A stretch of DNA of 64,000 nt, taken from contig CAZNAD010000010.1 of the NCBI GenBank assembly GCA_964571195.1, forward strand, positions 10,029-74,028, in the 5' to 3' direction. This document shows positions 1,559 to 26,928 of the stretch, piece after piece. This DNA is from an uncultured Gallionellaceae bacterium (GTDB taxonomy: Bacteria; Pseudomonadota; Gammaproteobacteria; Burkholderiales; Gallionellaceae). The position numbers and the translations under genes are program-made. The notes beneath the pieces were generated by a model, which saw only the letters and a program-made list of their open reading frames with translations, was not told where the DNA came from and made no database searches. The first letter of the stretch is position 1. Every line of letters begins with the position of its first letter.

Positions 1559-1571
1559 GGGGAGAGAAAAC

Positions 1572-2369: not shown

Positions 2370-2574
2370 ACTGATGGATTACCTGCACACAGACTGGGCG
2401 GCAATGACCCGCAACGATTGGCTCGGAGTATTCTTTACCGTGCTGGCGTTCGTGGCGATGGTCGCGGTCTATGTGATGGTGTTCAATCCTAAGAACAAGG
2501 AAGCACTCAACTCGCAGGGCGATATGCCCCTGCGGGATGAGGTCGAGTACAACAATTTGGGAGATAAAAAATGA
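2362..2574 (+). CDS. ccoQ: cbb3 oxidase small subunit CcoQ
   Basis: 70-aa single-TM ORF overlapping the ccoO stop and the ccoP start, which is the canonical ccoQ position and size. Confidence 0.8.
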
Positions 2575-3524
2575 GTGACAATCACAACTCCGCTGGTGGC
2601 GTTCCAACCACGGGGCATGTATGGGATGACGATCTGGGCGATTTCACCAATCAGCCACCAAAGTGGTGGATGCTGGGTCTGACCGCAAGTACGATCTGGG
2701 TGGTGGTGTACTTCCTGATGTATCCGAGCGTGCCTCTCGCAACGCACGGAACGTATTTCCAAGGTATCGGTCTGCCAGGTTCCGGCCAATGGACAGCGAT
2801 CAAGGAATTGGAAGCTGACAGCAAGGACCTGCAAGACGTTCGCGGCAAGTATGAGGAGCAGCTGAAGGGTATGACTCCGGCGGCTATTCTGGCTGACAGC
2901 AATCTGTCCGAATACGTAATCCGTTCGGGTAAGGTGTTGTTCTCCGATAACTGCGGCGCGTGCCATGGTCAGAACGGTGTCGGTACGATGCAGTCTGGTG
3001 CAAAGTTCAAGGCGCATGAGCAAGGTCTGATGGCTCCTGTGTTGAACGACGATGATTGGCTATATGGTGGTACCGTAGAGCAAATCTACGAAAGTATCTC
3101 TAATGGCCGTCGGGCTATGATGACTGCGCACAAAGATATGTTGTCTGCTGCCGAGATCGACACTTTGGCCAATGCTGTTGCCAAGGGTGAGCCAACCTCT
3201 ACACCGTTGTTTGCCGAAAAGGGCTGCACAGCCTGCCACGGTGCCGATGGTAAGGGTATGCAAGCGATGGGCTCTGCCAATTTGACCGACAAGATCTGGC
3301 GTTTTGATGGCAGCTTGGAAGGCATCAAACACACCATTACTTACGGTGTAAACGCAGGTGACTCCTCTCGTGTGGCGGAGATGCCAAACTTTACGGCGGC
3401 AGGCAAGCTGTCTGAAGTTGAGATGAAGAAACTGGCGGTTTATGTCTACAAGTTCGGTGGCGGTAAAGCGGCAGCTCCTGCAGCGGCTCCAGCTCCTGTA
3501 GCGGAAGTTCCAGCGGCCAAGTAA
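2571..3524 (+). CDS. ccoP: cbb3 oxidase dihaem cytochrome c subunit (CcoP)
   Basis: N-terminal TM helix and two CXXCH motifs (CGACH, CTACH). Ala/Pro-rich C-terminal tail. ATGA overlap with ccoQ. Confidence 0.93.
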   Translation: MSDNHNSAGGVPTTGHVWDDDLGDFTNQPPKWWMLGLTASTIWVVVYFLMYPSVPLATHGTYFQGIGLPGSGQWTAIKELEADSKDLQDVRGKYEEQLKGMTPAAILADSNLSEYVIRSGKVLFSDNCGACHGQNGVGTMQSGAKFKAHEQGLMAPVLNDDDWLYGGTVEQIYESISNGRRAMMTAHKDMLSAAEIDTLANAVAKGEPTSTPLFAEKGCTACHGADGKGMQAMGSANLTDKIWRFDGSLEGIKHTITYGVNAGDSSRVAEMPNFTAAGKLSEVEMKKLAVYVYKFGGGKAAAPAAAPAPVAEVPAAK

Positions 3525-9291: not shown

Positions 9292-12243
9292 CTACTTACC
9301 CACGCCCACCAACGGGAAGTCGCTCAATCCACCCGGTGCAATACTCACCGGCGTTTGCTGCCCGTGGGTCAAACTTTTCACGCGACCATCCACATAAAAG
9401 TCCAAGCCCTTCACCGTCACCACGCCGCTGTTGTAGGCATCTGCTTTGCCGAACAATCCCTCAACCACCGACTTGGTGAATGCGCCATTGCCCCAACTAT
9501 CATTCTCTTGCGACAACTGTCCTGCTGACGATGCCGTGAACACCACCGCGCCATTTTCAGCCGAAGCCAAGTCGTTCACAAAGCCGCTGGTGCGCACATT
9601 GCCCATCACTCCGCCGGAATAGCAGGTGTCGATAAAGAACACCGTATGCCCCGGCAAGTTGGCGAAGGTTTGCTTGATCTCGCTTTGCGATACACCCGTG
9701 CGAGCCAGCTTGTCCGGGTCGGCGTTGTGCGGCATGAAGTAATACCCGCCCAGCTTGTCATTCATCCCGTGACCGGCTACGAACATCACCCCCACATCAT
9801 TCGCGGAGACATTTTGTTTGAGCCAATCTAAACCATCCAGCACATCATCCTTGGTAGCCTTGTCATCGGTGAGCAGCTTCACCGTAACATCGCTATACAG
9901 TTTTCCTTTCTGCCCCTTCAGCGAATTCACAAAGTCATTCGCATCTTTTGATGCCAGCCCTAAGTTATATTCCGGGTTGGCGTATTTCGACACGCCCACC
10001 GCCAGTACATACAGCTTGGGTTTGCTGGAAGCAGTTTGTTTAGCTGTGGCTTTGTTGCCAGCAAGCTGCAAACGCAAAATGGCGGGCGTGGAAGTGCTGA
10101 ATTTATTTTCTGCGAAGAGTTGAATTTCTACTTCCTGTGATGAAGATGCGGCATCACCTGAAGAGGCTTGTCCGGTTCTTTTCAATGCCCGTGTGGCGGA
10201 TTGAATTCCAGCCTCGGGAATGGTTACTTCGATTTCTTTCACATCATCAGATGTATTGTCAGCCACTCGCTTCAACGCTCGCGTATCCGATTGCAGCAGC
10301 CCATTCACCCGCACCCTCATCGCGGTGACGGGGGCATCGGCAGCAGTGCGTACATGGTAGCGCACCGTGATCTTGCCGGATTGAACGGTAGTGTCTGATG
10401 ACGGAGAAACAATCTCCACCACCGGCGGCAACACTTGCGCAATGGCAGTGACGGCTTGTGTGCGACGACCAGATGCTTCATTGGCGAGGCGCACAGCTTC
10501 CGCTTCGTCTTGCGTTTCCAGCACTTTGCTCAAGACATCGGGGCGATAGAAGCGGTCACGGAAACGCGAAGCGGGGAAAAAATCTGCTTCATGGTCTTTG
10601 CCGTTGTTGACATGCCAGCCGATCAAGCCTTCCGCACCGGGCGAGGCGTCGTAATAACCGGAAGGCGTCCACAGCACCCAGCGCTTTTTATCCGCATGGG
10701 GAAAGAAGGCGAGTTGCTCCACCCCATCGGAAGCGCGATGCCAGCGTATCGTGCCGTCGCCGTAAGCCGCCACCACCCAGCGCCCGTCGGCGGACACGTT
10801 CACCGCCCATACCGAGCCGCCCGGCGAGGGCATTTGCCAGCGTTGGTTGCCGTTGCGGTCGAACAGGCGCAAGAGCCATGTCGTCCCTAGCGCAAAGCCG
10901 CTGCCGTCCGGCAACAGGGCGAGACTGCGCGAGGTTTCATATTGCTCAAGCGAGAGAGGCGTGCCGTTGAGCTTGGGCGCGGTGGTTTCTTCCCAGTCGG
11001 TGACGTTGATGCCCGCTGCACTCAGGAGGGGCGGCTGTAGCCCGGCGGTGTCGTCGGGCAGTATTTGTTTGCGCAGGCTGTCGAATACGACGGGAGCTTT
11101 GCCATTCCATTCATAGCCGAAGCGCACCTGTGCGCCATCGGCGGACAGGGTGAAACCTTCATACATGGCGCGAAAATCCGCCAGTACTGGCGCATGGCGC
11201 AACAACATTTGCCCCTGTCTATCCACCACGCCCCAAGAGGGTTCACCTGCGCCAAACGCCAAGCGCCCGCCGGGCAGAGGCAACAAGTCCATCACCGTAC
11301 TATCCGCCACCGGAATATCCTGCACCGTGTTGCCCTGCCAGTGGCGGATGTAATCTCGTGATTCCCCGTCGAATGGCTTTTGCGCCTGCCCCGCCGCCGC
11401 CAGCCCCTGCGCTGTCCAGGCGACGCTGCTCAACTTTGCATTCACCCCTGCCGTATCGGGCGCATCAAGCAAAGACAAATCCGCCGCGTCCAGCAGGTTC
11501 ACCGCCGGGGTGTCATCAAACCCCAGCGCGATGCGCTTGCCGTCGGGCGAGAAGCGCGCGGCATAGGGCCGCGTCCCCCCCGGTGCGCTGCGCTTGGCGA
11601 GCAGGTTTAAGGTGTTGCCGTCCCAGCGATACAGGCGCACAAAGCCGTCAAAACTGGTGCTGACCAGCCTGCCGTCGCGGCTGAACTGCACCGAGTAGCT
11701 GTCGCTGCCGTAGTCCGTGTCTTGTGCCAGCAGGCGACCCTCGGCCACGGAGAACAGGCGGATGCCATTATTACCATGCAAACTCGCCGCCAGCGTGCGC
11801 CCATCCGGGGCGTAGGCCAGATGGTGAATCACATTGGGCAAGCCGCTGAGGCGGCGCAGCAAACGCCCACTGGCGCGGTCGAGCAGGAAGATGGAATCGC
11901 CCGCTTCGCCCACTTGCGTCCATCCCCCCAGCGCCACGGTTTTGCCGTCAGGCGATAACGCTACCGCATACAGCTTGCCTTCGTCACCGCTACCGATGGG
12001 AATGCGCAAGGTGTTGAGCAAGCGCCCGTCGCGCAAGTTCCACACCTTGGCAGTTTTGTCGTGGGATGCCGTCACCAGATAGCGCCCTTGTGCATCGCTG
12101 GCAATGCGCCCAATCTTCGCCGTGTGTTCGCCGGGGTCGATGCGCAATATGGGTTCGCTGGGTGGTTCGCCAGCATGGGCGGCAACGGATGAGGCCAGCG
12201 CGGTGATGGCAAATAGAAATTTGAAGTGTGAAATTAAGGGCAT
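9292..12243 (-). CDS. Exported WD40-repeat / Ig-like linker / caspase (peptidase C14) fusion protein, copy A
   Basis: 983 aa. Signal peptide (..VAAHA|GE). WD40-like repeats (SHDKTAKVWNL, YGDGTIRWHRA). C-terminal caspase dyad motifs VMFVAGHGMND and VFFIDTCYSGG. Confidence 0.85.
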   Translation of the reverse strand: MPLISHFKFLFAITALASSVAAHAGEPPSEPILRIDPGEHTAKIGRIASDAQGRYLVTASHDKTAKVWNLRDGRLLNTLRIPIGSGDEGKLYAVALSPDGKTVALGGWTQVGEAGDSIFLLDRASGRLLRRLSGLPNVIHHLAYAPDGRTLAASLHGNNGIRLFSVAEGRLLAQDTDYGSDSYSVQFSRDGRLVSTSFDGFVRLYRWDGNTLNLLAKRSAPGGTRPYAARFSPDGKRIALGFDDTPAVNLLDAADLSLLDAPDTAGVNAKLSSVAWTAQGLAAAGQAQKPFDGESRDYIRHWQGNTVQDIPVADSTVMDLLPLPGGRLAFGAGEPSWGVVDRQGQMLLRHAPVLADFRAMYEGFTLSADGAQVRFGYEWNGKAPVVFDSLRKQILPDDTAGLQPPLLSAAGINVTDWEETTAPKLNGTPLSLEQYETSRSLALLPDGSGFALGTTWLLRLFDRNGNQRWQMPSPGGSVWAVNVSADGRWVVAAYGDGTIRWHRASDGVEQLAFFPHADKKRWVLWTPSGYYDASPGAEGLIGWHVNNGKDHEADFFPASRFRDRFYRPDVLSKVLETQDEAEAVRLANEASGRRTQAVTAIAQVLPPVVEIVSPSSDTTVQSGKITVRYHVRTAADAPVTAMRVRVNGLLQSDTRALKRVADNTSDDVKEIEVTIPEAGIQSATRALKRTGQASSGDAASSSQEVEIQLFAENKFSTSTPAILRLQLAGNKATAKQTASSKPKLYVLAVGVSKYANPEYNLGLASKDANDFVNSLKGQKGKLYSDVTVKLLTDDKATKDDVLDGLDWLKQNVSANDVGVMFVAGHGMNDKLGGYYFMPHNADPDKLARTGVSQSEIKQTFANLPGHTVFFIDTCYSGGVMGNVRTSGFVNDLASAENGAVVFTASSAGQLSQENDSWGNGAFTKSVVEGLFGKADAYNSGVVTVKGLDFYVDGRVKSLTHGQQTPVSIAPGGLSDFPLVGVGK

Positions 12244-14449: not shown

Positions 14450-15577
14450 CTAAGACTCGCTGATGTGAGCAAGCGTCCCTGTCGCCAGCAACATCAGCAA
14501 TTCAGACTGACTGCGTGTGTCGGTTTTGCCAAACACGGATTTGAGTTGTGTTCGTGCGGTCGAGATCGAGATGCCCAGGTCGTCTGCGGCTTCTTCAATT
14601 GTTCTGAGTGCGGCCAGTCTGGCGGCAAGCCGGGCTTCCGCCGGAGTGATTTTGTAAAGTGTGACCAGTCGCTTTGGCGACAACTGCAAGCCACCGGGTC
14701 TGGACAAAAATAGAGCGGCACACTCTGAGCTATTGGCGGAATTCAGGATGGATGCCATCTCTGGCGAAACCGGGGTGACGACGCAATGCAGAAAATCGTT
14801 CCTGCCGGGCATCGAGATACGCATGTCGCCGCCCACACCGAATGAGGTGTCCGATATCAGCTTATGCAGTTGCGCTGTTTCGGCGGGGCTGTCGCTTGTA
14901 AGTCTATGGTGAAAAATGCCCAAACCTACATCTTGCGCCATCATCAATTCTGCCGCGCGGTTCATATAGAGTGGTGTGGCGGATCGGTTCGTCAGGATCA
15001 CGCCCATACGCATCTGATCAAGCACCGTATGAGCCTGCTCTTTTTCGGCGGCCACGGTATGAAACTTGTGATGTATTTGGACGGCACGTTTAACGTGAGG
15101 CGCAAGGATGCTCATCAATTGAGCTTCTTCTTCACCAAATGCGCCATCCTGTTTGCCCCGCTGAATTCCCAATACTAATGAACGGTTGTCGTCCTTGAGC
15201 AGAATTACGCCTAGTGCATGGACTTTATCTTGGGGGCGGAGGAAGTCATTGAAGTATTCGGTCTTGCGCAACTTATGCTGATCAATATGCTGGTCGGATA
15301 TGAAGATTTTCCCCGGTGCATGTTGATTCATTACGTGGTCGAAGTAGTCCACCTTGGCGTAGTGTTCGCAGTAAGTTATTCGCCAAGCGGGGTCGTAGCC
15401 GACACTTGCGTTAAAAGTCGCCGATGCGGCTTGTGTTTCATTGGAGCGCAAAATGGCCGATGAACCGCCGAGTGCAGCTGTGAAGCTATCCAGGAATGGA
15501 GCCCACTTGCTCTCGTCGAGCGCGGCATCGTAAATCATGCCCACTAGCTGGAGTGTTTTATCGGTTGAGTCGCTCAT
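14450..15577 (-). CDS. LuxR-family transcriptional regulator (C-terminal HTH, N-terminal sensory region)
   Basis: C-terminal LuxR/GerE-type HTH (TPAEARLAARLAALRTIEEAADDLGISISTARTQLKSVFGKT). 375 aa. Confidence 0.8.
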   Translation of the reverse strand: MSDSTDKTLQLVGMIYDAALDESKWAPFLDSFTAALGGSSAILRSNETQAASATFNASVGYDPAWRITYCEHYAKVDYFDHVMNQHAPGKIFISDQHIDQHKLRKTEYFNDFLRPQDKVHALGVILLKDDNRSLVLGIQRGKQDGAFGEEEAQLMSILAPHVKRAVQIHHKFHTVAAEKEQAHTVLDQMRMGVILTNRSATPLYMNRAAELMMAQDVGLGIFHHRLTSDSPAETAQLHKLISDTSFGVGGDMRISMPGRNDFLHCVVTPVSPEMASILNSANSSECAALFLSRPGGLQLSPKRLVTLYKITPAEARLAARLAALRTIEEAADDLGISISTARTQLKSVFGKTDTRSQSELLMLLATGTLAHISES

Positions 15578-15663: not shown

Positions 15664-15801
15664 CTATGGAAGGTCTGATTAAGTCCGTTCGTGGTGAGTG
15701 TTTCCCGTTCGCTCCCTCGATACACCGCGCAAGCGCGGCACTTGGGACGAACGGGAAACTTATCGAACCATGGTTTTCGGACTTAATCAGACCTTCCCTA
15801 T
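15664..15801. repeat. MITE-like long palindromic element with perfect 20-bp terminal inverted repeats
   Basis: GGAAGGTCTGATTAAGTCCG (15668-15687) is the exact reverse complement of 15778-15797. Inner 12-bp arms are GTTTCCCGTTCG (15700-15711) and CGAACGGGAAAC (15748-15759). Central palindrome is CCGCGCAAGCGCGG (15725-15738). Flanked by CTAT on both sides. Confidence 0.7.
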
Positions 15802-17489
15802 CCATTTATGCTCTTCTTGCCTTGCAACAGGGCTTGTGCGAATAATTGCTGCCATCCTTCGGCGGCAAGCTCGCCCCCGTGTAGGGTGGTCTGATGCACC
15901 ACATAATTGACTGCGTCGCTGTTTTTAATAAGCGAGCGATGCAGCCAAATTCTGGTTTCATTGATGAGCTGTTCGATCTCTTCCGGGGTGAAGGTCTCCG
16001 ATTCGGATAACCAGGAAACGGCAATCGTTGTATCAAATAATCCCCAGATTCCTTTTTGATCTCCATTCATCATTTCTACGCTCTTGGGAATAGAGCCGGT
16101 CTTTTTGAGTTTGGTGCACAAGCCACCGAGCATGTCGTTGGAAATGAGCTTCTGCTTGTTGTCGAAGCGAATCAATAACAGTGTTGCATGCGCCTCTTCG
16201 TTGCGTGATAACGTGGATTGCACCACGTTCTGTTCCAGCACCTTGGCAGTTGATGCGGCATAAAGTCGTGCGAGGGAGAAATAGGCGATGCCCAACATCA
16301 CTGGACCGGCCAGATTGATGTAGGTATTGGTGAAGTTGATGCAGGCGAATGAAAAAACGATCAGGATGGTTTGGGATAGTCCGAACATGCTGTCGATCTT
16401 GTCGCGCCCCTTGTCGCGATAGAACGCCCATGCGGTGAGCCAGATGATGGAAAGTGATAACAGCAGGAACCAGATTCTGCCTTCCGGGAAACGCAACGAG
16501 TCGCCGTGTTTGAGATTATCTATGGCGGTGGCCAGTATCTCGACACCGGGGAAGGTCTTGGCCATCGGGGTGGCGCTGGCATCGTACAGATTCGGGGCAG
16601 TCGAGCCGATGATGACGATCTTGTCTTTGAATTCGTTCTTGTCGCGCTCGCTATTTTTGTCGCGCAAGCTGGAATAGGCGTCTGCAAAACTGATGTGTCG
16701 GTAACTAAACGGTTGGCCGCGCCAATTTAACAGGATGTGTTCGGTGGCGGGTTCGGGCCAGTTGAATTCGCGCGCGATCCGCGCCGCCATGGAGGGCAGC
16801 CGCCAGCCGTATCCCTCGAAGTAAACGGGATAGCTGCGCAGCACACCATCCGAGTCGAGGATCACATTCTGTGTACCCAGTCGTCCTCCGGCCAATGCGG
16901 ATGGGAAGTAGGGCAGAACCATGTTGATGGCGGCATCTTCTTCGGTCGTTTCATCGGGGACGCGGGTTGCACCGGGGATTTGCGCGATTTTGATTTGCCG
17001 CAGGGTTTCGCTGGAAGAATCGAGAAACAACATCGGGAAGAAGGTGTTGCTGGTTTTTGCGATGCTGGCATCAAATGCGGCATCACTCTTAGGGTTGAAT
17101 ACATCGGCATCGCTGAACAGCACATCGAATACAACCGCTTTGGGTAGGTCTTCTTCTAGCCGCGTTACAAAGTCGCCGATCACAGAGCGCGGCCACGGCC
17201 AGCGACCGTAAGTTTTGGACATCGCTGTCAGGCTGGCTTCGTCGATGTCAATAATGACGATATCGGGGTCGGGCTGGGGCGGTGCCAGCCGGTAGCGCAC
17301 CATCAAATCGAAAGCCGCCGTGCGGATGTCGCTGGTGATGTGCAAAAAGCCGGTATCCAGCAGCGTAAATAGCGTGAATACGATAGCCAGGTACACGTAG
17401 AAATTACGCTTCCATTTGCGCGCCAGAAAATGGGTGAGATTCGCGCTGGCGAGACGTATTCGGATAAGTGCGAGGGGTTTTAGTTTCAC
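15798..17489 (-). CDS. CHASE2-domain membrane sensor with a short atypical cytoplasmic C-terminal domain
   Basis: 563 aa. N-terminal TM helix, then about 300 aa periplasmic region with CHASE2-like motifs (IVIIDIDEASL, GRWPWPR, GVLR), then 3 TM helices, then about 150 aa tail with no kinase, GGDEF or complete cyclase motifs. Confidence 0.7.
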   Translation of the reverse strand: MKLKPLALIRIRLASANLTHFLARKWKRNFYVYLAIVFTLFTLLDTGFLHITSDIRTAAFDLMVRYRLAPPQPDPDIVIIDIDEASLTAMSKTYGRWPWPRSVIGDFVTRLEEDLPKAVVFDVLFSDADVFNPKSDAAFDASIAKTSNTFFPMLFLDSSSETLRQIKIAQIPGATRVPDETTEEDAAINMVLPYFPSALAGGRLGTQNVILDSDGVLRSYPVYFEGYGWRLPSMAARIAREFNWPEPATEHILLNWRGQPFSYRHISFADAYSSLRDKNSERDKNEFKDKIVIIGSTAPNLYDASATPMAKTFPGVEILATAIDNLKHGDSLRFPEGRIWFLLLSLSIIWLTAWAFYRDKGRDKIDSMFGLSQTILIVFSFACINFTNTYINLAGPVMLGIAYFSLARLYAASTAKVLEQNVVQSTLSRNEEAHATLLLIRFDNKQKLISNDMLGGLCTKLKKTGSIPKSVEMMNGDQKGIWGLFDTTIAVSWLSESETFTPEEIEQLINETRIWLHRSLIKNSDAVNYVVHQTTLHGGELAAEGWQQLFAQALLQGKKSING

Positions 17490-17535: not shown

Positions 17536-18150
17536 TTATATGCCTAAAGACATGAGCAAATATACATGATCGACTGACAATTTTGGACTTAACTGGGTGT
17601 CAGCCTCATAACGTTCAAATCCCAAACGAAATAAAGGTTGGTTCGCATTTGTGGTGTGGAATGATACGCCGCTTCCCCAGATCAATGAATTTGAACCCGC
17701 GTAACTTTCTCCTCCCGTGCAGGTGGTGCAAGAGATCAAGGTGTAAAGCCCATTGACGGTGCCAAGCTTGCCAAACACTCGCCAGCTATCACTAACTGGG
17801 ATATATCCAATCGCGGACAGGCTGGTGCTGAGCAAAGATGCGCTGGCAATTTGGGTGTTTCTGCTGTTGTTGTCGGAATAAATTTTCCAGTCGGTATAAG
17901 CGACGCCCGTTTCGAGGGCGAGGTATTTGTTGGGCTGGTAGCCCAAGATTCCCGCGTACGAATTTCCCGGCAAATAGGTGACCGTATTGCGTGTTGGGAA
18001 AGTGCCGCCTAATGCAATGCCGCCATAAAGCGATGTGCCAGCCGCTACGTCGGCTGAAATCGCCAGCATAAAGGCGGCGGCAACAGCGGAGTTTTGTACC
18101 CGCAGACGGAGAAAGAGGCTGATTTTATTCAAGATATGGGGCGTATGCAC
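17536..18150 (-). CDS. Small outer-membrane beta-barrel protein (OmpW/OmpA-barrel-like)
   Basis: 204 aa. Signal peptide (..ADVAAG). Alternating amphipathic Gly/Tyr-rich strands (LYGGIALGG, ALETGVAYTDWKIY). Confidence 0.65.
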   Translation of the reverse strand: MHTPHILNKISLFLRLRVQNSAVAAAFMLAISADVAAGTSLYGGIALGGTFPTRNTVTYLPGNSYAGILGYQPNKYLALETGVAYTDWKIYSDNNSRNTQIASASLLSTSLSAIGYIPVSDSWRVFGKLGTVNGLYTLISCTTCTGGESYAGSNSLIWGSGVSFHTTNANQPLFRLGFERYEADTQLSPKLSVDHVYLLMSLGI

Positions 18151-18465
18151 GATAGGGATGGCTCAAAAATCAATCTGTTATCTAATGTTTGATGTCTGGA
18201 TTCGGCTCAGGGCGTACTTTGGCACAAACTCGCCGACGAGACATACCCCATTTGGATGATGCGGCACGGTGCGACGTGCAGGTATAGTTGCCGCTGTGAT
18301 TTCAGCACTCAGCGGGCTTGCCGGGGAAGCGCTTGTCAAGTTTCGGGGCGTGGGGTAAATTGCGTTCGCGCTGTATCTACGGGGGGCCGTTGCGTAACGG
18401 TGCGGGAATCAGGATTCATTTCGAGGTTTTATTTTATTAACTTTAGAGTGTCGGGAGTGTTAGAA

Positions 18466-19071
18466 ATGTCAAAAATCACCAAAGCATTGTTGTTGTCCGT
18501 TGTTGCATTCGGCCTCGCTGCCTGTGAGACGAATCCACCTAAAGAAGCACCAAAAGCCAAGGTGGCTGATTGCACCTTCCCAAGTTCACCTGATGTGGCT
18601 GCACCGGACTGGGTCTGTACTGGTTCGGCAGAAGGCGTGGAAGTGAGTGCGGTAGGTTCGGAGAAGATCGTTTCCGGCGAAACTGATTTTGCGCAGACCA
18701 TGGCCATTGCTTCGGCGCGCCTCAAGCTGGCAGGGCAAATGAAGACACACGTGACCGGTATGGTTAAGAAATATATGGAGACCACTGGAGCGGGCAACAG
18801 CGCTACCGTAGATAAGGTGAACACTTCGGTCACCAAGCAGATTACCAACGAAACATTGGTTGGCAGCAAGATGTTCAAGAGCCGCACATCGCCGGACGGC
18901 ACTGTTTACGTGTTGGTCGGTCTGGATGAAAAAGCAGTTCAGAAAAATACTGAAACAGCCGTCAAGACCAGCATGGGTAACGATCAGGCGCTGTGGCAGC
19001 AGTTCAAGGCCAGCAAGGCTCAGGATGAATTGGCGGCCGATATCGCCAAGCAGAAATTAGACGCAAAATAA
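18466..19071 (+). CDS. LPP20-like lipoprotein
   Basis: ATG at 18466 (MSKITKALLLSVVAFGLAAC: lipobox LAAC). Paralogue of 8749-9264. The ORF-track N-terminal extension from 18256 is Cys/Arg-rich and looks non-coding. Confidence 0.75.
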   Translation: MSKITKALLLSVVAFGLAACETNPPKEAPKAKVADCTFPSSPDVAAPDWVCTGSAEGVEVSAVGSEKIVSGETDFAQTMAIASARLKLAGQMKTHVTGMVKKYMETTGAGNSATVDKVNTSVTKQITNETLVGSKMFKSRTSPDGTVYVLVGLDEKAVQKNTETAVKTSMGNDQALWQQFKASKAQDELAADIAKQKLDAK

Positions 19072-19190: not shown

Positions 19191-19952
19191 ATGTACACGA
19201 CAATCAAAGCAATACTTTATTTGCTGATATCGCTCTCGGCGAGCGCATGTTTTGCTGCGGAGCGTATCGAGATCGTAAAATCAGATGGTGAGGTGACGGT
19301 CAGTAAATCCGCCGGTGCCCAATCTAAGGTTGTGTCAGCCGGAAAAGCTTTGCCTTCGGTCAATACGTTATCTACCGGAGCTGGCGGACGTGCGGTCGTG
19401 CGGGTGGGAAACACGGGTTACCTCGTGCTGGAAAAAAACAGCTCGGTCGAGATCAATGCGGCCAATACCTCGGCCAGTTTCTTCCGGCAACTGACCGGCA
19501 AGATTTATTACGCGGTGAATACCCTCAAGGGGAAATCGCACACGCTTGAGGTGAGAACCAAGGTTGCTACCATCGGTGTGCGCGGCACACGCTTTCTGGT
19601 GACGGACGATACGGAACGTAACGAGATCGGTATGCGCAAGGGAGAGGTCAATGTTGCCACCACGGGAGAGGAATTCGAGGTGCATAAACAGTTGGCACAA
19701 GAAGAGTGGGAGGCGATGAAGCAAGAGGCGCAGGCTGCGATCAATAAGGAAAAGTCCGATTTCGAGACGTATAAGGAAAACACGCAGAAGGAGTTCGTCG
19801 AATACAAGCGCGAACTTCTCTTGGGGGCGGATCGGATGTTGGCGTTTGATGGCAAGCGTGTGGATGATCGTCCCTTGGGTGGTGACACCAAGGCAGATAT
19901 GGAAAGCCTGGAAAACTATGCTGGGCAGTGGTTGAATAAAGTTAAAGATTAA
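19191..19952 (+). CDS. Exported FecR-domain protein with a coiled-coil C-terminus
   Basis: Signal peptide (..SACFAA). FecR-like motifs (GRAVVRVGNTGYLVLEKNSSVEI; ATIGVRGTRFLV). Charged helical tail. Confidence 0.75.
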   Translation: MYTTIKAILYLLISLSASACFAAERIEIVKSDGEVTVSKSAGAQSKVVSAGKALPSVNTLSTGAGGRAVVRVGNTGYLVLEKNSSVEINAANTSASFFRQLTGKIYYAVNTLKGKSHTLEVRTKVATIGVRGTRFLVTDDTERNEIGMRKGEVNVATTGEEFEVHKQLAQEEWEAMKQEAQAAINKEKSDFETYKENTQKEFVEYKRELLLGADRMLAFDGKRVDDRPLGGDTKADMESLENYAGQWLNKVKD

Positions 19953-19958
19953 AGGGGG

Positions 19959-20363
19959 ATGGAAATGAAGCGTATTGGTATTTGCCTGATCATGTTGTTA
20001 AGCGTTCTGGTGTCGGCATGTGCGACTCCTGCGGCACCCGTCGCGGCTAATGCAAGACCGGCATGGATAGACAATCCGGGAGATGGTGTATCGGCTTCGG
20101 CGGGTATGCATGTACGCGGCAAAGCCATGCAGGAAGAGTTGGCGATCTCGCGTGCCAGAGTCGAGTTCGCAAAACGCTTTGGCGTGACGATAGAGTCCGT
20201 CGGGATCTATACCAAGAATATGGCAGGTGGAAAGTCAACAACGACCGGCAGTCAGGTCTCGCAAGAGCAAAGTAAACAAACTGATGTGAAAGCCATGGTG
20301 AAAGCAAAATGGCACGATCAGGAGGCTGATGTGCTGTACGTTTGGCTGGTTCCCAGTAATTAA
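19959..20363 (+). CDS. LPP20-like lipoprotein
   Basis: Lipobox LVSAC. PAWIDNPGDG...GKAMQEELAISRARVEFAKR resembles LPP20-family sequences. 7-nt gap after the FecR gene. Confidence 0.6.
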   Translation: MEMKRIGICLIMLLSVLVSACATPAAPVAANARPAWIDNPGDGVSASAGMHVRGKAMQEELAISRARVEFAKRFGVTIESVGIYTKNMAGGKSTTTGSQVSQEQSKQTDVKAMVKAKWHDQEADVLYVWLVPSN

Positions 20364-20449
20364 ATCTTAACGGCCTGTATGGGGGGCAGCGTTGGAGGTG
20401 CCCCGCTGTCGAAATGGTTTATCGGATTTTGTTTGGAGAGGAATGGCAT

Positions 20450-21955
20450 ATGGATGTGACGAGGGGTCGGAAAGCGGCAAGGTTATTCTCGGTGGCGGGG
20501 CTACTGTGTTTGCCTTTGAACGGTGCGTTTGCGCAGGATGACTTCGAGGCATACCGCCGCCAGCAAGCTCAGGGGGCGCAACAGGAAAAAGCCAGATTCG
20601 ATGTTTACAAAGAGCAGCAAGACCGCGAATTTGCCGGATTCCTGAAAAGCCAGTGGAGCGAATTCGAAACCTTTCAGGGCAAGGTGCGGATCAAAGAGCC
20701 CAAGCCCAAGCAACCCCCGGTCGCTTTGCCTGTTGTGGTTGCGCCTACCGCCAAGCCTGTTCCAGTCACGCCTCCCGTTGCTGTGGCACCGTTACTCGCG
20801 CCGGTGACCCCTCCGCCACCTCCGGCGCAACCCAAGCCCGTTACCGTTGGAGCCGATCAGTTAGATTTGATGTTCTACGGTAATGCAGTGGGATTTGCGT
20901 TCGATCCGCAATGGAAAACCTATCGCTTAACCGGCGGAGCCAAACCGGAAACCATCAGTGAGTTCTGGACCACGATGAGCGGCAGTAAATACGAGGCGAC
21001 ACTTCAGGCGATCAATGCGGCGCGCAAAGAGTTAAAGCTGGATGATTGGGGGTATGTCACATTGTGGCGCGATGTGGTGCGCGCGCTGCAACCGGAACGC
21101 CAGTCCGAGCAAAATCTGTTGCTTTGGTTCTTTCTGGTCAAGTCGGGATATGACGTGCGCCTGGGGTATTACGAGAAAGATGTGTTCCTTTTTGTAGCCA
21201 TCAAACAGCCTGTGTATTCGACGAAATACACCAGAGTTAACGATCAAACTTATTATGCGGCGCTGGCTGCCGATCACGGCAATGGCATCCGGGCTTTCTA
21301 CAGCTATAAATCAGACTATCCGGCAAAGCTGAAAGCGCTGGATATAAAATCCGCCGCCACCGGATTTACCAAGACGGTTTCCGCGCAACGCGAACTCGCT
21401 TTCGACTACAAGGGGAAAACGATCAAGCTCTCCGTTCCCTATGATCGCCGTTTGGTCGAATATATGAGCACGTTTCCCCAATCCGAATTCGAGTTGTATT
21501 TTGATACGGACGGTAGCTCCGTGTTGAAAGGCGCGTTACTCGCTGAATTGAAAAAATATACGGCTACGATGAGCGAAGAAGAGGCGGTGAATTTCCTGCT
21601 TGCCTTCGTCCAGAAAGCCTTTGCCTACAAGACCGATGATGATCAATTCGGTGCCGAAAAATACTTCTTCGTTGAAGAGTCGCTGCACTTCCCTTACAAC
21701 GACTGCGAAGACCGCTCTGTGCTGTTTGCTTGGCTGGTACACGAACTGGTCGGGATCAAAGTGGTCGGCTTGCTTTATCCGGGGCACATGACCACGGCTG
21801 TCGAATTAAAACAGGTGAACGACGAATTTTTCACCGTGACCTACCAAAACAAGCGGCTGGTCGTCGCCGACCCAACGTATATCGGGGCATCAGTCGGCAT
21901 GGCGATGCCTTCTTATGCCAAATACAAACCTAAGCGGGTGGTGGAGATTCAGTGA
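20450..21955 (+). CDS. Exported protein with a Pro-rich linker and a C-terminal transglutaminase-like (Cys-His-Asp) core
   Basis: Signal peptide (..NGAFAQ). PKPKQPPVALPVVVAPTAKPVPVTPP linker. Putative triad context YNDCEDRS ... YPGHMTTAV ... VVADPT. Confidence 0.6.
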   Translation: MDVTRGRKAARLFSVAGLLCLPLNGAFAQDDFEAYRRQQAQGAQQEKARFDVYKEQQDREFAGFLKSQWSEFETFQGKVRIKEPKPKQPPVALPVVVAPTAKPVPVTPPVAVAPLLAPVTPPPPPAQPKPVTVGADQLDLMFYGNAVGFAFDPQWKTYRLTGGAKPETISEFWTTMSGSKYEATLQAINAARKELKLDDWGYVTLWRDVVRALQPERQSEQNLLLWFFLVKSGYDVRLGYYEKDVFLFVAIKQPVYSTKYTRVNDQTYYAALAADHGNGIRAFYSYKSDYPAKLKALDIKSAATGFTKTVSAQRELAFDYKGKTIKLSVPYDRRLVEYMSTFPQSEFELYFDTDGSSVLKGALLAELKKYTATMSEEEAVNFLLAFVQKAFAYKTDDDQFGAEKYFFVEESLHFPYNDCEDRSVLFAWLVHELVGIKVVGLLYPGHMTTAVELKQVNDEFFTVTYQNKRLVVADPTYIGASVGMAMPSYAKYKPKRVVEIQ

Positions 21956-22524: not shown

Positions 22525-25458
22525 ATGAACTACTTCACTCTATTGAAACGTGTTGCTCCGATGAGCGCAACCGCGTTTTTTCTGGGAGGTCTCTTTCTCT
22601 GCGGTTTACAACCGGTTTACGCGGGAGACCCGCCCGCCGAGCCTATGTTGCGCTTCGATCTCGGCGAACACACAGGTGTGCTTCGCCGCATTGCAGTGGA
22701 CGATGAAGGCCGCTTTGCTGTGACATCTTCAGATGACAAGACGGCGCGGGTGTGGAGTTTGCCGGACGGGCGTTTGCTTTCTACCTTGCGCGTTCCCCTC
22801 AGTGGCGGTAACGAGGGCAAACTGTTTGCCGTGGCGATGTCGCCCGATGGCAATACCGTTGCCTTGGGTGGGTGGACTGGTTGGGACTACGAGAATTCGA
22901 TGTCTATTTTTCTTTTTGATCGAGCCAGTGGTCGCATGTTGCGCCGCCTGACCGGTTTGCCGGAGGTGATCAATCACCTCGCGTTTTCACCCGATGGCCG
23001 CCTGCTGGCGGCGTGCATGGGGAGTCAAAGTGGTATTCGCCTGTTTTCCGTAAGTACCGGACGCTTGTTGGCGGAAGATGCGGACTATGGTGCCAGCAGC
23101 TATTCTGTGCATTTCAGTCGCGACGGGCGTTTGCTGGCCAGCAGTTACGATGGTTATCTGCGCATGTACCGCTGGAATGGACAAACATTGAGCCTGCTGG
23201 CCAAACGTACCGTTCCCGGCGGGAGTCAGCCGGAAGGGGCACGATTTTCACCGGATGGTACACGCATAGCCGTGGGATTCAGTGACTCGACAGCGGTCAA
23301 TGTGTTGGATGGGGATGATCTCAGTTTCTTGTATGCGCCGGATACTGCGGGCGTAGGTGCGAAATTAAGCAGTGTGGCGTGGTCTGCCGATGGTCAAACG
23401 CTGTACGCAGGCGGGCAGGCGCAAGCTAAATATGATGAAGGGTGGCGACAATATATCCGCCGCTATGAGCAGGCTGGGCGCGGGGCAGCACAGAACATCC
23501 CGGTGGTCACTGACAGCATTATGGCGCTGGTTCCCTTGCCCGATGGTGGTTTGGTGTTCGGATCGGCGGCCTCTTCATGGGGCATGCTGGATGCTCAAGG
23601 CCGGCGTGTATTGCTTCATACGCCAGTGATTCCCGATTATCGGAATCTATTGGAAGGATTCACCTTGTCTGCCGATGGTACGCAGGTGCGTTTCGGTTAT
23701 GAATGGCCAGGCAAGTCTCCTGTGGTGCTCGATAGTCGTACCCGCAGCCTGTTGGCGGATGATGTCCCCGGTTTGATCCCCCCTGTGGTCAGTATGCCAG
23801 GTCTGGATGTGACCGGCTGGGAACACACGACCGCTCCCAAGCTCAACGGAACTGCACTCCCGCTCCAGTCATATGAGTTCTCGAGCAGCATGGCGTTCGC
23901 GCCGGATGGCAGTGGTTTGGCGCTGGGGTCAAGTTGGAATTTGCGCTTTTTCGACCGTAATGGCAATAAGCGCTGGGGACATCCAACCCCCGGTTCCGCG
24001 TGGGCTGTGAATATATCTCAGGACGGACGTTGGGTTGTGGCAGCCTATGGCGACGGCACGATACGCTGGCATCGAGCCTCCGATGGTGTCGAGCAGATGG
24101 CGTTCTTCCCGCATGCGGACAAGAAGCGCTGGGTGATGTGGACACCCTCCGGTTATTACGCTGCATCACCCGGCGCGGAAGACTTGATCGGTTGGCATCT
24201 GAATAACGGCAAAGATCGTGCGGCAGACTTCTTCCCGGCTTCGCGTTTCCGCGAACGTTATTATCGTCCCGATGTGCTGGCGAAAGTCTTTGATACGCAG
24301 GACGAAGCCCAGGCTGTGCAGATGGCGAATGCCGAATCCGGCCGTAGACAGACTGCGATGGCTTCCATCGCGGAGATATTGCCGCCGGTAGTGGAAATCA
24401 TTTCTCCTGTCGCTGACGCTCCTGTCCGGTCGAGCAAAGTCACCGTGCGCTACCGTGTGCGCACGCTGCCCGATGCGCCGGTGACGGGCATCCGTGTTCG
24501 TGTGAACGGACAGTCGGTCAGCGCGGAACGCGCATTAAAACGCAAGGAGGAATCCGGCAACGAAATTCGCGAGGTTGAGGTCGACATCCCGGAACAGGAT
24601 AGCGATATCGCGCTGTTTGCCGAGAACAAGAACGGTATTTCCACGGCCGCATTGTTGCACCTTGAATGGGCGGGTAAAAAAGCTGCTGTCGAAGCGGTGC
24701 AATTCAAACCCAAACTGTATGTACTGGCGGTGGGGGTGTCGAAATACAAGAACCCGGACTACAACCTGGGATTGGCCGCAAAAGATGCAAAAGACTTCGC
24801 TGCCGTGCTGCAAAAACAGCAGGGTAGACTGTATGGCGAGGTCGTGGTCAAGCTGCTTACCGATAACGGTGCGACACGTGATGATGTGGTGGACGGATTG
24901 GAGTGGTTGAAGCAGCAAGTGACTACCCGCGACGTGGGCATGATGTTCATTGCCGGTCACGGCATGAACGACAACCAGGGCAAATATTTCTTCTTGCCGC
25001 ACAATGCCGATCCAGACAAGTTATTGCGTACCGGTGTGGCGCAGACCGACATTCGCGATACGCTGAATTCGCTAGCGGGCAAGGCCGTATTCTTTGTGGA
25101 CACCTGTCATGCGGGTAATGCGTTGGGCACCTCCAAGACCCGCGCCATTGGCGGTACGGCAGATGCCTTCATCAACGAACTGGGTTCGGCGGAGAACGGT
25201 GTGGTGGTGTTTTCATCTTCTACCGGAAAACAGTTATCGCAGGAGAATCCTGCCTGGGGTAACGGCGCTTTCACCAAAGCGGTGGTCGAGGGCTTGAGTG
25301 GCAAGGCGGACTTTACCAAGAATGGCAAAATCACTCATAAGGGGTTGGATTATTACGTTACCGAGCGCGTGAAAGAGCTGACCAAGGGGCAACAGTCTCC
25401 GGTTGCCATCGCACCGAATGGCATCACGGATTTCCCGATCGCGGTGGCAGGGAAATAA
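22525..25458 (+). CDS. Exported WD40-repeat / Ig-like linker / caspase (peptidase C14) fusion protein, copy B
   Basis: 977 aa. Signal peptide (..QPVYA|GD). 57 of 85 hand-aligned N-terminal residues are identical to copy A. Dyad motifs MMFIAGHGMND and VFFVDTCHAGN. Confidence 0.85.
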   Translation: MNYFTLLKRVAPMSATAFFLGGLFLCGLQPVYAGDPPAEPMLRFDLGEHTGVLRRIAVDDEGRFAVTSSDDKTARVWSLPDGRLLSTLRVPLSGGNEGKLFAVAMSPDGNTVALGGWTGWDYENSMSIFLFDRASGRMLRRLTGLPEVINHLAFSPDGRLLAACMGSQSGIRLFSVSTGRLLAEDADYGASSYSVHFSRDGRLLASSYDGYLRMYRWNGQTLSLLAKRTVPGGSQPEGARFSPDGTRIAVGFSDSTAVNVLDGDDLSFLYAPDTAGVGAKLSSVAWSADGQTLYAGGQAQAKYDEGWRQYIRRYEQAGRGAAQNIPVVTDSIMALVPLPDGGLVFGSAASSWGMLDAQGRRVLLHTPVIPDYRNLLEGFTLSADGTQVRFGYEWPGKSPVVLDSRTRSLLADDVPGLIPPVVSMPGLDVTGWEHTTAPKLNGTALPLQSYEFSSSMAFAPDGSGLALGSSWNLRFFDRNGNKRWGHPTPGSAWAVNISQDGRWVVAAYGDGTIRWHRASDGVEQMAFFPHADKKRWVMWTPSGYYAASPGAEDLIGWHLNNGKDRAADFFPASRFRERYYRPDVLAKVFDTQDEAQAVQMANAESGRRQTAMASIAEILPPVVEIISPVADAPVRSSKVTVRYRVRTLPDAPVTGIRVRVNGQSVSAERALKRKEESGNEIREVEVDIPEQDSDIALFAENKNGISTAALLHLEWAGKKAAVEAVQFKPKLYVLAVGVSKYKNPDYNLGLAAKDAKDFAAVLQKQQGRLYGEVVVKLLTDNGATRDDVVDGLEWLKQQVTTRDVGMMFIAGHGMNDNQGKYFFLPHNADPDKLLRTGVAQTDIRDTLNSLAGKAVFFVDTCHAGNALGTSKTRAIGGTADAFINELGSAENGVVVFSSSTGKQLSQENPAWGNGAFTKAVVEGLSGKADFTKNGKITHKGLDYYVTERVKELTKGQQSPVAIAPNGITDFPIAVAGK

Positions 25459-25497: not shown

Positions 25498-26928
25498 ATG
25501 GAGAACAACATGACGCGCATCTATTTCCTGGCAGTATTGCTGCTGTTTAGTCCGCCATCGTTTGCGGCCCAGCTTACGGGACAAGGCTGGGGCGACACCG
25601 AGGCTGCCGCCAAACGCGAGGCGCTGGCTGATATCTCCTCCCGCATCAGCGTGACGGTGCGCAGCAAGCTGAAAAACAAGAAGACGATCACATCGAAAAT
25701 TGACGATCAGAAGAGATCCGATTCGGTGAATCAGGTGGCGGAGAGCACTGTTGAGACGGAGTCTGAACTGCCCATTCTCGGTGCGGAATTCAACAGCCAG
25801 AAAGCAGGCGAAAAATTCTTTGTGGAGGCTACGCTGGACGATGCCCGCAGCCAGCGTTTGTATGAGCAAAGGCTGAGTGAGTTGCGCCAACAGATTGCTG
25901 CGGCGCATGGGCGTTTTGCCAAGACGCAGGGTAATGAGGCGCAGTATTACTTGCTCATGGAGATGCTGACCCAACTGGAGGAATACAAAAAACTCAACAC
26001 GGTGGCGATCTATCTGGGCAGCGCGCCAGCCGAACCTGCCGTGAGTGAGGCCGTGTTACGTCAGCAATTGCGCTCGGTCACCCAGCAAGTCGATAGTCTG
26101 GATCTGGCAGCCAAATTGCTGGCGGCGGACATTGCCGAGACCGGTATCTATGTGTTCCCCGCCAAAGCTCGCGGCGCCGATGAGATCACGCCATTCGCCG
26201 CCTTGTTAAAAGATAAGGTGGGCGCGAATCTCAAAACGGTGCGTGAGCCGTATGCCGCGACATATACGCTGACAGGTGAATATGCCGAGTCGGCAGATGG
26301 TATTGATGTCACTTATCAGCTGGTCGATAAAGACTCCTCTACGTTGCTGAGCCGCAGTGTGCGTCTGGCCAGGGCCGCCTACGCCGGGCTGGAGACCAAG
26401 CCGAAGACCGTCAGTTTCGAGCAGCTTCTTAAAGCCGGAGTGGCCATTTCGGGCGATCTGCATGTCGATATATCAACCAGCCAGGGCAAACACGATTTGC
26501 TGTTCACTGAAGGCGAGGAAGTCGAGCTGTTCGTCAAATTGAGCGAGGCCGGATATTTCTATGTGGTGGGACACACCATCAAGGATTCCGAAAAGAATTC
26601 CTATCTGCTGGAACTGCGCGACGTGGAAGGGCCGCGTAAATTCGTCCAGTTCGTCAATGCGGATGATGCCAACAAGCTGATCAGCATCGGCAAGTTCGAA
26701 GTGAGTGTGCCGTTCGGCGTGGAAGGCTTGCAGGTGTTTGCATCCAGCAAGGATCTGCTGGAAAGCTTGCCCCCGACCCGGCACGACAGCGCAAGCGGCC
26801 TTTACCTCATCTCTGCTTCGCCGCAGGAAGGGGTGACCAAAACGCGGGCGCTGATAAAAAAGAAAAAACAGGCTGCGCAGACTGCCGAGGGTTCGCTGAT
26901 ATTTACGACACAGCCAGCCCGGCCTTAG
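25498..26928 (+). CDS. Exported protein with an LPP20-like N-terminal domain and a DUF4384-like C-terminal domain
   Basis: Signal peptide (..PPSFAA). GQGWGDTEAAAKREALADISSRISVTV is LPP20-like. The C-terminal GEEVELFVKLSEAGYFYVVGH...FEVSVPFGVEGLQVFASS matches my recollection of DUF4384. Confidence 0.6.
   Translation: MENNMTRIYFLAVLLLFSPPSFAAQLTGQGWGDTEAAAKREALADISSRISVTVRSKLKNKKTITSKIDDQKRSDSVNQVAESTVETESELPILGAEFNSQKAGEKFFVEATLDDARSQRLYEQRLSELRQQIAAAHGRFAKTQGNEAQYYLLMEMLTQLEEYKKLNTVAIYLGSAPAEPAVSEAVLRQQLRSVTQQVDSLDLAAKLLAADIAETGIYVFPAKARGADEITPFAALLKDKVGANLKTVREPYAATYTLTGEYAESADGIDVTYQLVDKDSSTLLSRSVRLARAAYAGLETKPKTVSFEQLLKAGVAISGDLHVDISTSQGKHDLLFTEGEEVELFVKLSEAGYFYVVGHTIKDSEKNSYLLELRDVEGPRKFVQFVNADDANKLISIGKFEVSVPFGVEGLQVFASSKDLLESLPPTRHDSASGLYLISASPQEGVTKTRALIKKKKQAAQTAEGSLIFTTQPARP

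Follow-up and report, generated by a model that had tools for sequence, protein, structure and literature searches.

What does a receptor do once its output domain can no longer be recognized? The question is raised by a gene in a 64,000-nucleotide stretch of DNA from an uncultured Gallionellaceae bacterium (GenBank assembly GCA_964571195.1, contig CAZNAD010000010.1, positions 10,029 to 74,028 of the forward strand), the whole of which is the window analysed here. An open reading frame on its minus strand (15798-17489, as listed and translated) starts with GTG and encodes a 563-residue protein combining a CHASE2 sensor with a tail of about 148 residues. A preliminary description, made from the letters alone, had seen in it a CHASE2 sensor with a truncated, possibly pseudo-cyclase output, downstream of an outer-membrane barrel gene and next to caspase and FecR genes. 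We know of no signal that has been identified for CHASE2 domains since the domain was defined. The explanation that best accounts for the whole, and which we regard as probable, is that the gene is complete, is under selection and belongs to a family of CHASE2 receptors whose output is dead, with a tail derived from the cyclase of a gene cassette, and that the copy found here has been orphaned from that cassette.

The sensor part is readily placed. That the N-terminal region is CHASE2 had been left for a profile search to decide, and it is: Pfam CHASE2 (PF05226) covers residues 40-356 with E = 6e-53 and 180.5 bits, for a gathering cut-off of 26.3. Hydropathy, positive-inside charges and AlphaFold helices concur on a topology of one transmembrane (TM) segment, a periplasmic CHASE2 domain, three further TM segments and the tail. 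Hydropathy and the model place TM1 at about 30-52, TM2 at 338-357, TM3 at 368-386 and TM4 at 394-414, this last segment being weaker, moderately hydrophobic, and positioned by alignment to cyclase-bearing paralogs. Along the gene, residues 1-52 (17334..17489, minus strand) form a basic cytoplasmic N-terminus, with eight Lys/Arg and no acidic residue, followed by TM1 (hydropathy and charge count, with model helices at 3-25 and 30-49). Residues 53-337 (16479..17333) make up the periplasmic ectodomain matched by PF05226, for which a Foldseek search of the full-length AlphaFold model against PDB returned no structural match. Residues 338-414 (16248..16478) carry TM2-TM4, supported by hydropathy and model helices, and a family-specific polar motif, GLSQ...INF(T/S)xTYINLxGP, rich in invariant columns. 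Finally, residues 415-563 (15801..16247) form the tail, which this topology would place in the cytoplasm.

Searched directly, the tail remains anonymous. Taken alone it found no family in Pfam at E <= 10, in NCBIfam, or among PDB sequences, whether queried as a single protein or as a profile, and Pfam at that threshold was equally silent for all 19 tails of the family alignment; no known complete output domain, which would have contradicted the idea of a truncated one, came out of these searches. A tail-only AlphaFold (AF2) model was obtained with pLDDT 80 and pTM 0.79. It shows a beta1-alpha1-beta2-beta3-alpha2-beta4-alpha3 fold in which the three segments singled out at the start as cyclase-like prove to be real strands: TLLLIRFD is beta1, MMNGDQKGIWGLF the beta2-beta3 hairpin and YVVHQTTLHG beta4. 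The topology is of the palm type, and a Foldseek search of the model against PDB lists generic ferredoxin-like and palm folds, including dimeric alpha+beta barrels. The best E-values go to the PII-like protein SbtB, bound to ADP, ATP or cyclic AMP (cAMP) (E = 2e-4, probability 0.99-1.0), with a query-based template-modelling score (TMq) of about 0.3. The best whole-query score and the best query coverage belong to the GGDEF domain of SadC (TMq 0.51); a class III cyclase, Rv1625c, figures in the list at E = 0.013, PII-like and other ferredoxin-like folds scoring equal to or above GGDEF and cyclase domains. Neither GGDEF nor PII was recovered by sequence: the former has no Pfam match in the tail, whose beta2-beta3 hairpin carries G-x-Q-K-G rather than GG(D/E)EF, and the latter is missing from the PDB profile search, the Foldseek resemblance being at the level of the fold (TMq 0.28-0.33).

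The tail has, by contrast with these searches, a family of its own. More than 100 clusters (at 90% identity) match the 563-residue protein end to end, at 53-89% identity and over lengths of 560-582 residues when incomplete cluster representatives are left out. Their hosts are mostly Gallionellaceae (Sideroxydans, Gallionella, Sideroxyarcus, Ferrigenium and Nitrotoga), together with Sulfuricella. The tail occurs in 78 of the 151 genomes of the window's family, nearly always in frames of about 570-600 residues, and in 15 of the 17 genomes of its genus, eight of those 15, the window genome included, having two copies. When the tail alone was run exhaustively with HMMER through 1.8 billion representatives, 35 clusters were recovered, all of them CHASE2 proteins of about 570 residues or fragments thereof; no cyclase, kinase or GGDEF protein was found among the 35, and the tail was never seen alone or with another sensor. 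Motifs conserved in the tail of the family are ATLLL, KSVE, G-x-Q-K-G-x-W-x-L-F, A-x-S-W, G-G and W-R-x-L-F-A-E-A-L.

Members of the family also keep constant company. At 59 of the 66 loci with enough sequence, neighbour clustering followed by tblastn places an SH3_3 gene and an M48 gene directly downstream on the same strand, the genes commonly overlapping or sitting a few bases apart. The products of this cassette are a secreted SH3_3 protein of about 170 residues and an exported M48 metalloprotease of about 285 residues with an HExxH motif, whose nearest known counterparts are BepA and LoiP. Precomputed Pfam annotation shows the cassette in a cultured organism as well, Sideroxydans lithotrophicus ES-1.

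It is the rest of the protein that suggests where the tail came from. The ectodomain and TM part alone served to search 400 genomes of the class for relatives. Outside the family, the closest CHASE2 proteins so found are 606-650 residues long and 35-44% identical, and their C-termini match the cyclase hidden Markov model (HMM) at E = 1e-52 to 1e-61, with Guanylate_cyc Pfam scores of 100-113 bits on representatives. Their cyclase domain begins at residue ~422-450, the very point at which the tail begins. An SH3 gene follows directly downstream on the same strand in 13 of these loci, and the start of an M48 gene is visible at the locus edge in four; these cyclase-bearing relatives are therefore from the same cassette. 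One of the 13, L140 (G817:C7), which has both SH3 and M48 downstream, and its companion L141 (G657:C1) are of special interest: at 46-49% identity and about 602 residues, they match CHASE2 only in Pfam, and their C-termini, of about 190 residues, gave no match with either the tail or the cyclase HMM; an intermediate stage of evolution is what they likely represent. When the shared part is put in a tree with three non-cassette paralogs as root, the cassette clade is supported at 100/99, with the cyclase-bearing members basal (L150 branches first, the remainder being partly unresolved), and within it a derived clade (100/100) where L140 and L141 (100/99) form the sister group of the tail family, itself monophyletic (100/100).

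A full-length alignment sets the tail and the cassette cyclases in one consistent register, the tail aligning with the cyclase domain over the latter's first half and ending before the helix that carries the Asn and Arg of the active site; L140 and L141 run on past that end with a vestige of the cyclase C-terminal subdomain. ATLLLIRFD of the tail aligns with beta1 of the cassette cyclases, ITVLFSDIRGFT; KSVEV-x-x-G-x-QKG-x-WGLFE-x-TIAISW with QVEVIF-x-HGGTLDKFIGDAIMAFW; (V)HQG-x-V-x-GG with IGIHTGPAVVG; and the last helix with the region of GDTVNLASRIE, where the tail stops. The correspondence between strands and cyclase motifs that had been proposed from the letters alone agrees with this alignment. 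A MAFFT register of the tail with non-cassette cyclases (five paralogs) differs, and was treated as unreliable. Residue by residue, the first metal Asp (D1) of the cassette cyclases is Arg or His in L140/L141 and Arg in the tail family; the substrate Lys is Asn or Ala in the former, and Gly, Glu, Asp or Asn in the latter; the second metal Asp (D2) is still Asp in L140/L141, and Thr, Tyr, Lys, Asn or His in the tail family. The beta4 His is kept in L140/L141 and in seven of ten sampled tails, the others having Tyr or Gln. The Asn and Arg, present in the cassette cyclases, are replaced in L140/L141 (Thr or Ala at Asn, a gap or Lys at Arg) and deleted in the tail family. Profile comparisons with hhalign, whose P-values are those of planned single comparisons and which all fall in the same register, link the intermediates to the tail at P = 0.0013 (121 columns) and to the cyclases at P = 0.037; tail and intermediates merged reach the cyclases at a modest P = 0.0079. 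The initial suggestion of a truncated pseudo-cyclase, ending before the Asn/Arg region, is thus supported mainly by descent: same position, same cassette, rooted tree and residues lost in place. In our judgement, it is quite probable that the tail is what descent has left of a cyclase domain.

Several points weigh on the other side and must be given their due. At E <= 10, Guanylate_cyc (PF00211) matches none of the 19 tails of the alignment, and the tail alone reaches the cassette cyclases in hhalign at P = 0.13, which is not significant; hhalign probabilities are 0.4-0.6%, the comparison with the genome's own CHASE2 cyclases giving 0.6%. The best Foldseek E-values point to SbtB rather than to cyclases and all TM scores are at or below 0.51; the fold alone therefore cannot separate a decayed cyclase from another ferredoxin-like domain. 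The intermediates are two sequences. The basal cyclase grade is partly unresolved, which leaves room for a cyclase clade standing as sister beside the tail clade. The cytoplasmic placement of the tail hinges on the weakly hydrophobic TM4, and the mechanism proposed further on is something that we infer.

The main rival to a cyclase remnant, in these circumstances, is replacement: an unrelated PII-like or ACT-like ferredoxin-like domain would have been swapped in for the cyclase, there to bind a ligand or a partner, for instance an adenine nucleotide or a cyclic nucleotide as SbtB does. The SbtB matches just described would be expected of such a swap, as would the lack of any significant direct match to a cyclase profile, and the invariant G-x-Q-x-G lies in a low-confidence beta2-beta3 loop, at the position of the T-loop of PII proteins. 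Yet the tail occupies the exact position of the cyclase in orthologous cassette proteins, it is bridged to the cyclase by the intermediates in a single register with D2 and the beta4 His kept, and it never occurs alone or with another sensor. The PII matches themselves span about 107 columns at low TMq, in the face of a PDB profile search from which PII is missing. We consider the swap unlikely, though deserving of attention.

If the tail is a cyclase remnant, it is a dead one. With the metal Asp pair and the substrate Lys replaced and everything from the Asn/Arg helix onward deleted, it should therefore be unable to make cAMP or cyclic GMP; on the residues present, the protein cannot have a cyclase active site. 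Loss of this kind seems to have happened more than once. In L155 (G153:C3, gene 1471-3291), a cyclase domain of the cassette clade is still full length and scores 26.5 bits with PF00211, with D1, D2 and Asn replaced, which by its sequence is a second, independent cyclase decay within the clade; the flank available there, which is short, showed no SH3 gene.

A dead domain may nevertheless serve a live one. The window genome holds five CHASE2 genes: on contig C1, CHASE2 with a real Guanylate_cyc domain (and TPR); on C5, CHASE2 with a real Guanylate_cyc domain and, separately, CHASE2 with a Ser/Thr kinase; on C3, a CHASE2-tail protein 51% identical to the window copy and linked to the cassette; and on C10 the window copy itself. 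With such a repertoire, the stub could keep a part in cAMP signalling, as a pseudoenzyme subunit with a regulatory role that pairs with, and modulates, the active domains of the genome's two CHASE2 cyclases; the genome also encodes a class II cAMP-phosphodiesterase-like gene, class III cyclases are dimeric, and degenerate partner domains are known, the C1/C2 pair of mammals being an example. What such a subunit would have to contribute is, however, gone, since the tail lacks the Asp pair, the Asn/Arg and the whole C-terminal subdomain after beta4; the two cyclases are 23-26% identical and fall in the outgroup clade, and co-localisation was not seen. This role for the stub appears distinctly improbable. 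The C5 genes lie in a signalling cluster worth recording for itself (L087, G000:C5:34000-52000), where the CHASE2-Ser/Thr kinase, a PP2C phosphatase, an FHA protein and the CHASE2-adenylate cyclase are found with the class II cAMP-phosphodiesterase-like MBL protein, a GAF-MshEN-T2SSE ATPase and a GAF-HD protein, which suggests a link of cAMP signalling to a type IV pilus or secretion ATPase.

Is the gene itself dead? An unrecognisable output domain, the disappearance of the usual partners and a mobile repeat abutting the gene (see below) are all what one might meet in a truncated pseudogene on its way to decay, or in an assembly or annotation artefact. Selection tells otherwise. Between the window copy and its 87% identical ortholog at locus L006, the synonymous rate (dS) is 0.57 and the ratio of non-synonymous to synonymous rates (dN/dS) 0.12 overall, with 0.09 for the ectodomain, 0.19 for the tail and 0.035 for TM2-TM4, where constraint is strongest. 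By these estimates, the tail is the least constrained part, yet clearly under purifying selection. The frame is open, it matches its homologs end to end in an architecture found in about half of the genomes of the window's family, and it retains every column that is invariant across the family. A pseudogene or damaged truncation is ruled out by dN/dS and conservation, and a decaying remnant or artefact of any sort is extremely improbable. The word truncated, used in the preliminary description, is thus apt in the evolutionary sense, by comparison with cyclase-bearing ancestors, and inapt for the gene, which is undamaged. Some true casualties may exist elsewhere in the family. In a 1.4-Mb genome (L139, G805:C1:25604-26812), a tail-family gene of 70% identity ends at residue 458, just past alpha1 of the tail, perhaps because it was shortened further or because it is a frameshifted pseudogene; tail matches that are fragmentary or contain stops are present in G047, G145, G025 and G081.

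The window copy belongs to the cassette clade in both trees, but it has no SH3_3-M48 pair downstream, a repeat and a regulator gene being there instead: it is an orphan paralog of the cassette CHASE2 gene. Because the pair was lost, the SH3_3 and M48 partners were not visible to whoever looked at the window alone. In the family tree, the window copy forms with L006, L007 and L016 a clade (100/99) nested in the cassette-bearing, Sideroxydans-type clade (100/100), with a long branch (0.52) leading to the window copy and L006. L007 and L016 retain the flanks seen in strain ES-1, with SOD upstream (in L016) and, in both, a convergent TPR membrane protein, Peptidase_S11 and DUF3617 downstream. The SH3-M48 pair is absent at both, and in L016 a mere 88 nucleotides separate the CHASE2 stop from the convergent gene; the pair was therefore deleted in place. 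At the window and L006, no ES-1-type flank is found and the flanks are wholly different, so the window copy would have moved after this deletion.

The C3 paralog, by contrast with the window copy, keeps the cassette, preceded by OmpA-family and AsmA-like genes. Around it (L086, G000:C3:24000-42000) lie genes for a PAS-GGDEF protein, the OmpA-family protein and a 1316-residue AsmA-like protein before, and for RNase R after; AsmA-like genes are upstream of the cassette in 4 of the 62 loci with enough upstream sequence. Other arrangements occur. At L119 (G469:C1:1568300-1576100), an SH3-M48 pair is followed by a CHASE2 cyclase of non-cassette type, in a different gene order and with no tail-type gene; its M48 is 66% identical to that of the window genome, and the locus looks like a partner swap. 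In small genomes of family f41 and other families (L120-L137), short cassette-type M48 genes have no detectable CHASE2 within ~5 kb, an SH3-like gene being detectable upstream of M48 in L120, L122 and L124; the SH3/M48 module therefore extends beyond the loci where it accompanies CHASE2.

The site where the window copy now stands has features of its own. A 130-nucleotide nested palindromic repeat, resembling a miniature inverted-repeat transposable element (15668..15797, no strand assigned), is inserted directly at the CHASE2 stop codon, between this gene and the regulator gene. Its folding energy is -75.5 kcal/mol (z = -8.8), and it has 24 matches in the genome, seven of them near full length at >=80% identity. 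L006 offers the empty site, with a CHASE2-regulator spacer of 79 nucleotides for 220 in the window. The repeat may now insulate the regulator gene from CHASE2 transcription. This regulator (14450..15577, minus strand) is probably of the LuxR/GerE helix-turn-helix type: the label LuxR it had been given finds some backing in weak C-terminal matches (NCBIfam LuxR BagY/FevT, E = 0.05; PDB TraR, E = 0.2) and none in Pfam, where the search gave no match. L006 is the only locus keeping the regulator.

On the other side, the small gene at 17536..18150 (minus strand) encodes an OmpA-like outer-membrane beta-barrel of about 200 residues, with Pfam OmpA_membrane at 27.8 bits (cut-off 21) and OMP_b-brl at 28.2 bits, just short of passing. 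A barrel gene 46 nucleotides upstream on the same strand had been announced, and is there; a terminator-like site was looked for in this gap and none was found, which makes co-transcription of the two genes plausible. Beyond, on the plus strand, come divergent genes for an LPP20 lipoprotein (18256-19071, Pfam E = 2.7e-6), a secreted FecR-domain protein (19191-19952, E = 1.2e-12) and a protein with WD40 and Peptidase_C14 (caspase) domains by Pfam (22525-25458). These three labels of the preliminary description hold; the fourth, 'TGase' for the 513-residue product of 20414-21955 (+), is unverified, neither this gene nor the preceding 134-residue frame (19959-20363, +) having a match in Pfam or NCBIfam. 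Both are kept in L006, at 77% and 63% identity. Two paralogous WD40 and Peptidase_C14 genes bracket the region, at 9292-12243 (-) and 22525-25458 (+), each with an LPP20-like gene after it, the one at 25498-26928 being LPP20 by Pfam.

Do these neighbours matter to the family? Among 80 related loci, the barrel, regulator, LPP20, FecR and 513-residue genes adjoin the CHASE2 gene in one relative only, L006. A barrel homolog is found in 2 of the 17 genomes of the genus, in both directly upstream of the window-type CHASE2 copy. FecR or caspase genes were looked for at the other CHASE2 genes of the genome and were not seen. The LPP20, FecR and caspase neighbours are a local, lineage-specific context and not partners of the whole family; as conserved partners they are ruled out by the count of one in 80. 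A recurring link of CHASE2 to caspase-fold proteins, as first imagined, is thus not supported for the CHASE2-tail family. The premise behind it, that CHASE2 genes may sit beside caspase-like and FecR genes, is broadly right, caspase-CHASE2 fusions (PMC3501461, PMC2853523, PMC8195603) and FecR-CHASE2 operons (PMC5192318) being on record, and is inapplicable to the window gene.

How might such a receptor work? The family would descend from the CHASE2 cyclase of the cassette, which further encodes the SH3_3 protein, secreted, and the M48 protease, periplasmic and BepA/LoiP-like. The tail of the family is presumably what is left of a class III adenylate/guanylate cyclase domain, reduced to its first palm core (beta-alpha-beta-beta-alpha-beta) and one helix. 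The clade of the window copy would have lost the SH3-M48 pair in place, then moved behind the OmpA-like barrel gene, in what looks like an island of exported LPP20, FecR and WD40-caspase genes. A periplasmic partner may still be sensed, or docked, by the CHASE2 ectodomain and the highly conserved TM bundle. No nucleotide messenger would then be involved: the dead cyclase stub, serving for dimerisation or for partner binding, would relay the signal by its conformation and protein contacts. Candidate partners for the window copy would be the barrel encoded upstream and the helix-turn-helix regulator encoded downstream. A bolder reading goes further: the core job of the cassette would be periplasmic and its cyclase dispensable, CHASE2 being a docking or control platform for an exported protease, and the window copy having been re-wired to another exported protease system. 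At a minimum, cyclase decay would then have occurred twice, once in L155 and once on the branch that gave rise to L140/L141 and the tail family, and CHASE2 domains would be receptors for protein partners and not for small molecules. We give this generalization little credence for the time being.

The proposal of an output-dead receptor derived from a cassette cyclase has consequences beyond the window. The widespread 'CHASE2-only' family is supported, mainly by descent, as a decayed adenylate cyclase that is still selected, a derivative of the known CHASE2 adenylate cyclases, and database entries labelled merely 'CHASE2 domain-containing protein' gain an evolutionary explanation. The CHASE2 receptor evidently retains a cAMP-independent function, which shifts attention to periplasmic partners and to the TM bundle. 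Active cyclases and dead stubs, matched within one and the same type of cassette, make a natural comparison set, with Sideroxydans lithotrophicus ES-1 as a cultured carrier. The value of the case lies in the pattern of the family, repeated cyclase loss in a fixed CHASE2-SH3-M48 cassette, more than in the orphan copy; the return for the window itself is modest, the links to the barrel and to the caspase island being known from two genomes only. A literature search found no paper on CHASE2 with M48 or on CHASE2 in Gallionellaceae, and none describing the CHASE2-SH3-M48 cassette or the CHASE2-tail family.

It remains to set the window protein beside systems that are better known. Its closest counterparts are the CHASE2 class III cyclases, both those of the cassette (L142-L153) and CyaD1, CyaD2 and CyaK of Sinorhizobium meliloti, which have the same ectodomain, the same arrangement of one and three TM segments and a cytoplasmic domain at the same position; with the former, the window protein further shares common ancestry and, through its family, the downstream SH3_3 and M48 genes. 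What sets it apart from all of them is that the catalytic residues (Asp, Lys, Asn and Arg) are lost, that the domain has no C-terminal half left and that Guanylate_cyc finds no match in it. Degenerate cyclase domains kept under selection after losing catalytic residues are not new either: L155 is one, and in the asymmetric C1/C2 pair of mammalian adenylyl cyclase the non-catalytic site belongs to a degenerate cyclase homology domain. The window tail has decayed further, with no HMM match and about 60% of the length, and it supplies neither half of an active site. With PII-like SbtB, it has in common the ferredoxin-like beta-alpha-beta-beta-alpha-beta core and the top Foldseek E-values; it differs by the lack of any sequence or profile similarity, by low TM scores, by its tether to the membrane and by an extra C-terminal helix.

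For the periplasmic side, BepA (YfgC) and LoiP are M48 proteases of the outer-membrane protein quality control of Escherichia coli. The cassette M48 resembles them (E = 2e-32 with NCBIfam BepA, E = 3e-25 with PDB 6AIT/6SAR, and an HExxH motif), but at about 280-310 residues it lacks the TPR domain of BepA and scores far under the equivalog cut-offs. In S. meliloti, which offers the only studied case that we know of, the CHASE2 cyclases CyaD1, CyaD2 and CyaK need the outer-membrane barrel NsrA to perceive a protein signal (PMC13001267, PMC7529298). An outer-membrane barrel is genetically associated with a CHASE2 receptor in the window too, with the difference that NsrA has ~1200 residues, for ~200 in the OmpA-like barrel, and that the pairing of the window is known in two genomes only. 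'BiofilmReg'-type operons of Burkholderia, Achromobacter and Pseudomonas aeruginosa join a response regulator, a periplasmic LysM and FecR protein and a CHASE2 histidine kinase (PMC5192318). There again a CHASE2 receptor goes with a secreted accessory of the cell-wall-binding type, LysM in those operons and SH3_3 in the cassette, and the window copy has a FecR gene in its vicinity. The two cases part in the output, a histidine kinase in those operons, and in the FecR gene, which in the window is divergent and not conserved with the family. The SH3_3/BepA-like cassette, the LysM-FecR proteins associated with CHASE2 kinases and the need of the S. meliloti cyclases for NsrA together suggest that CHASE2 domains work with protein partners of the envelope.

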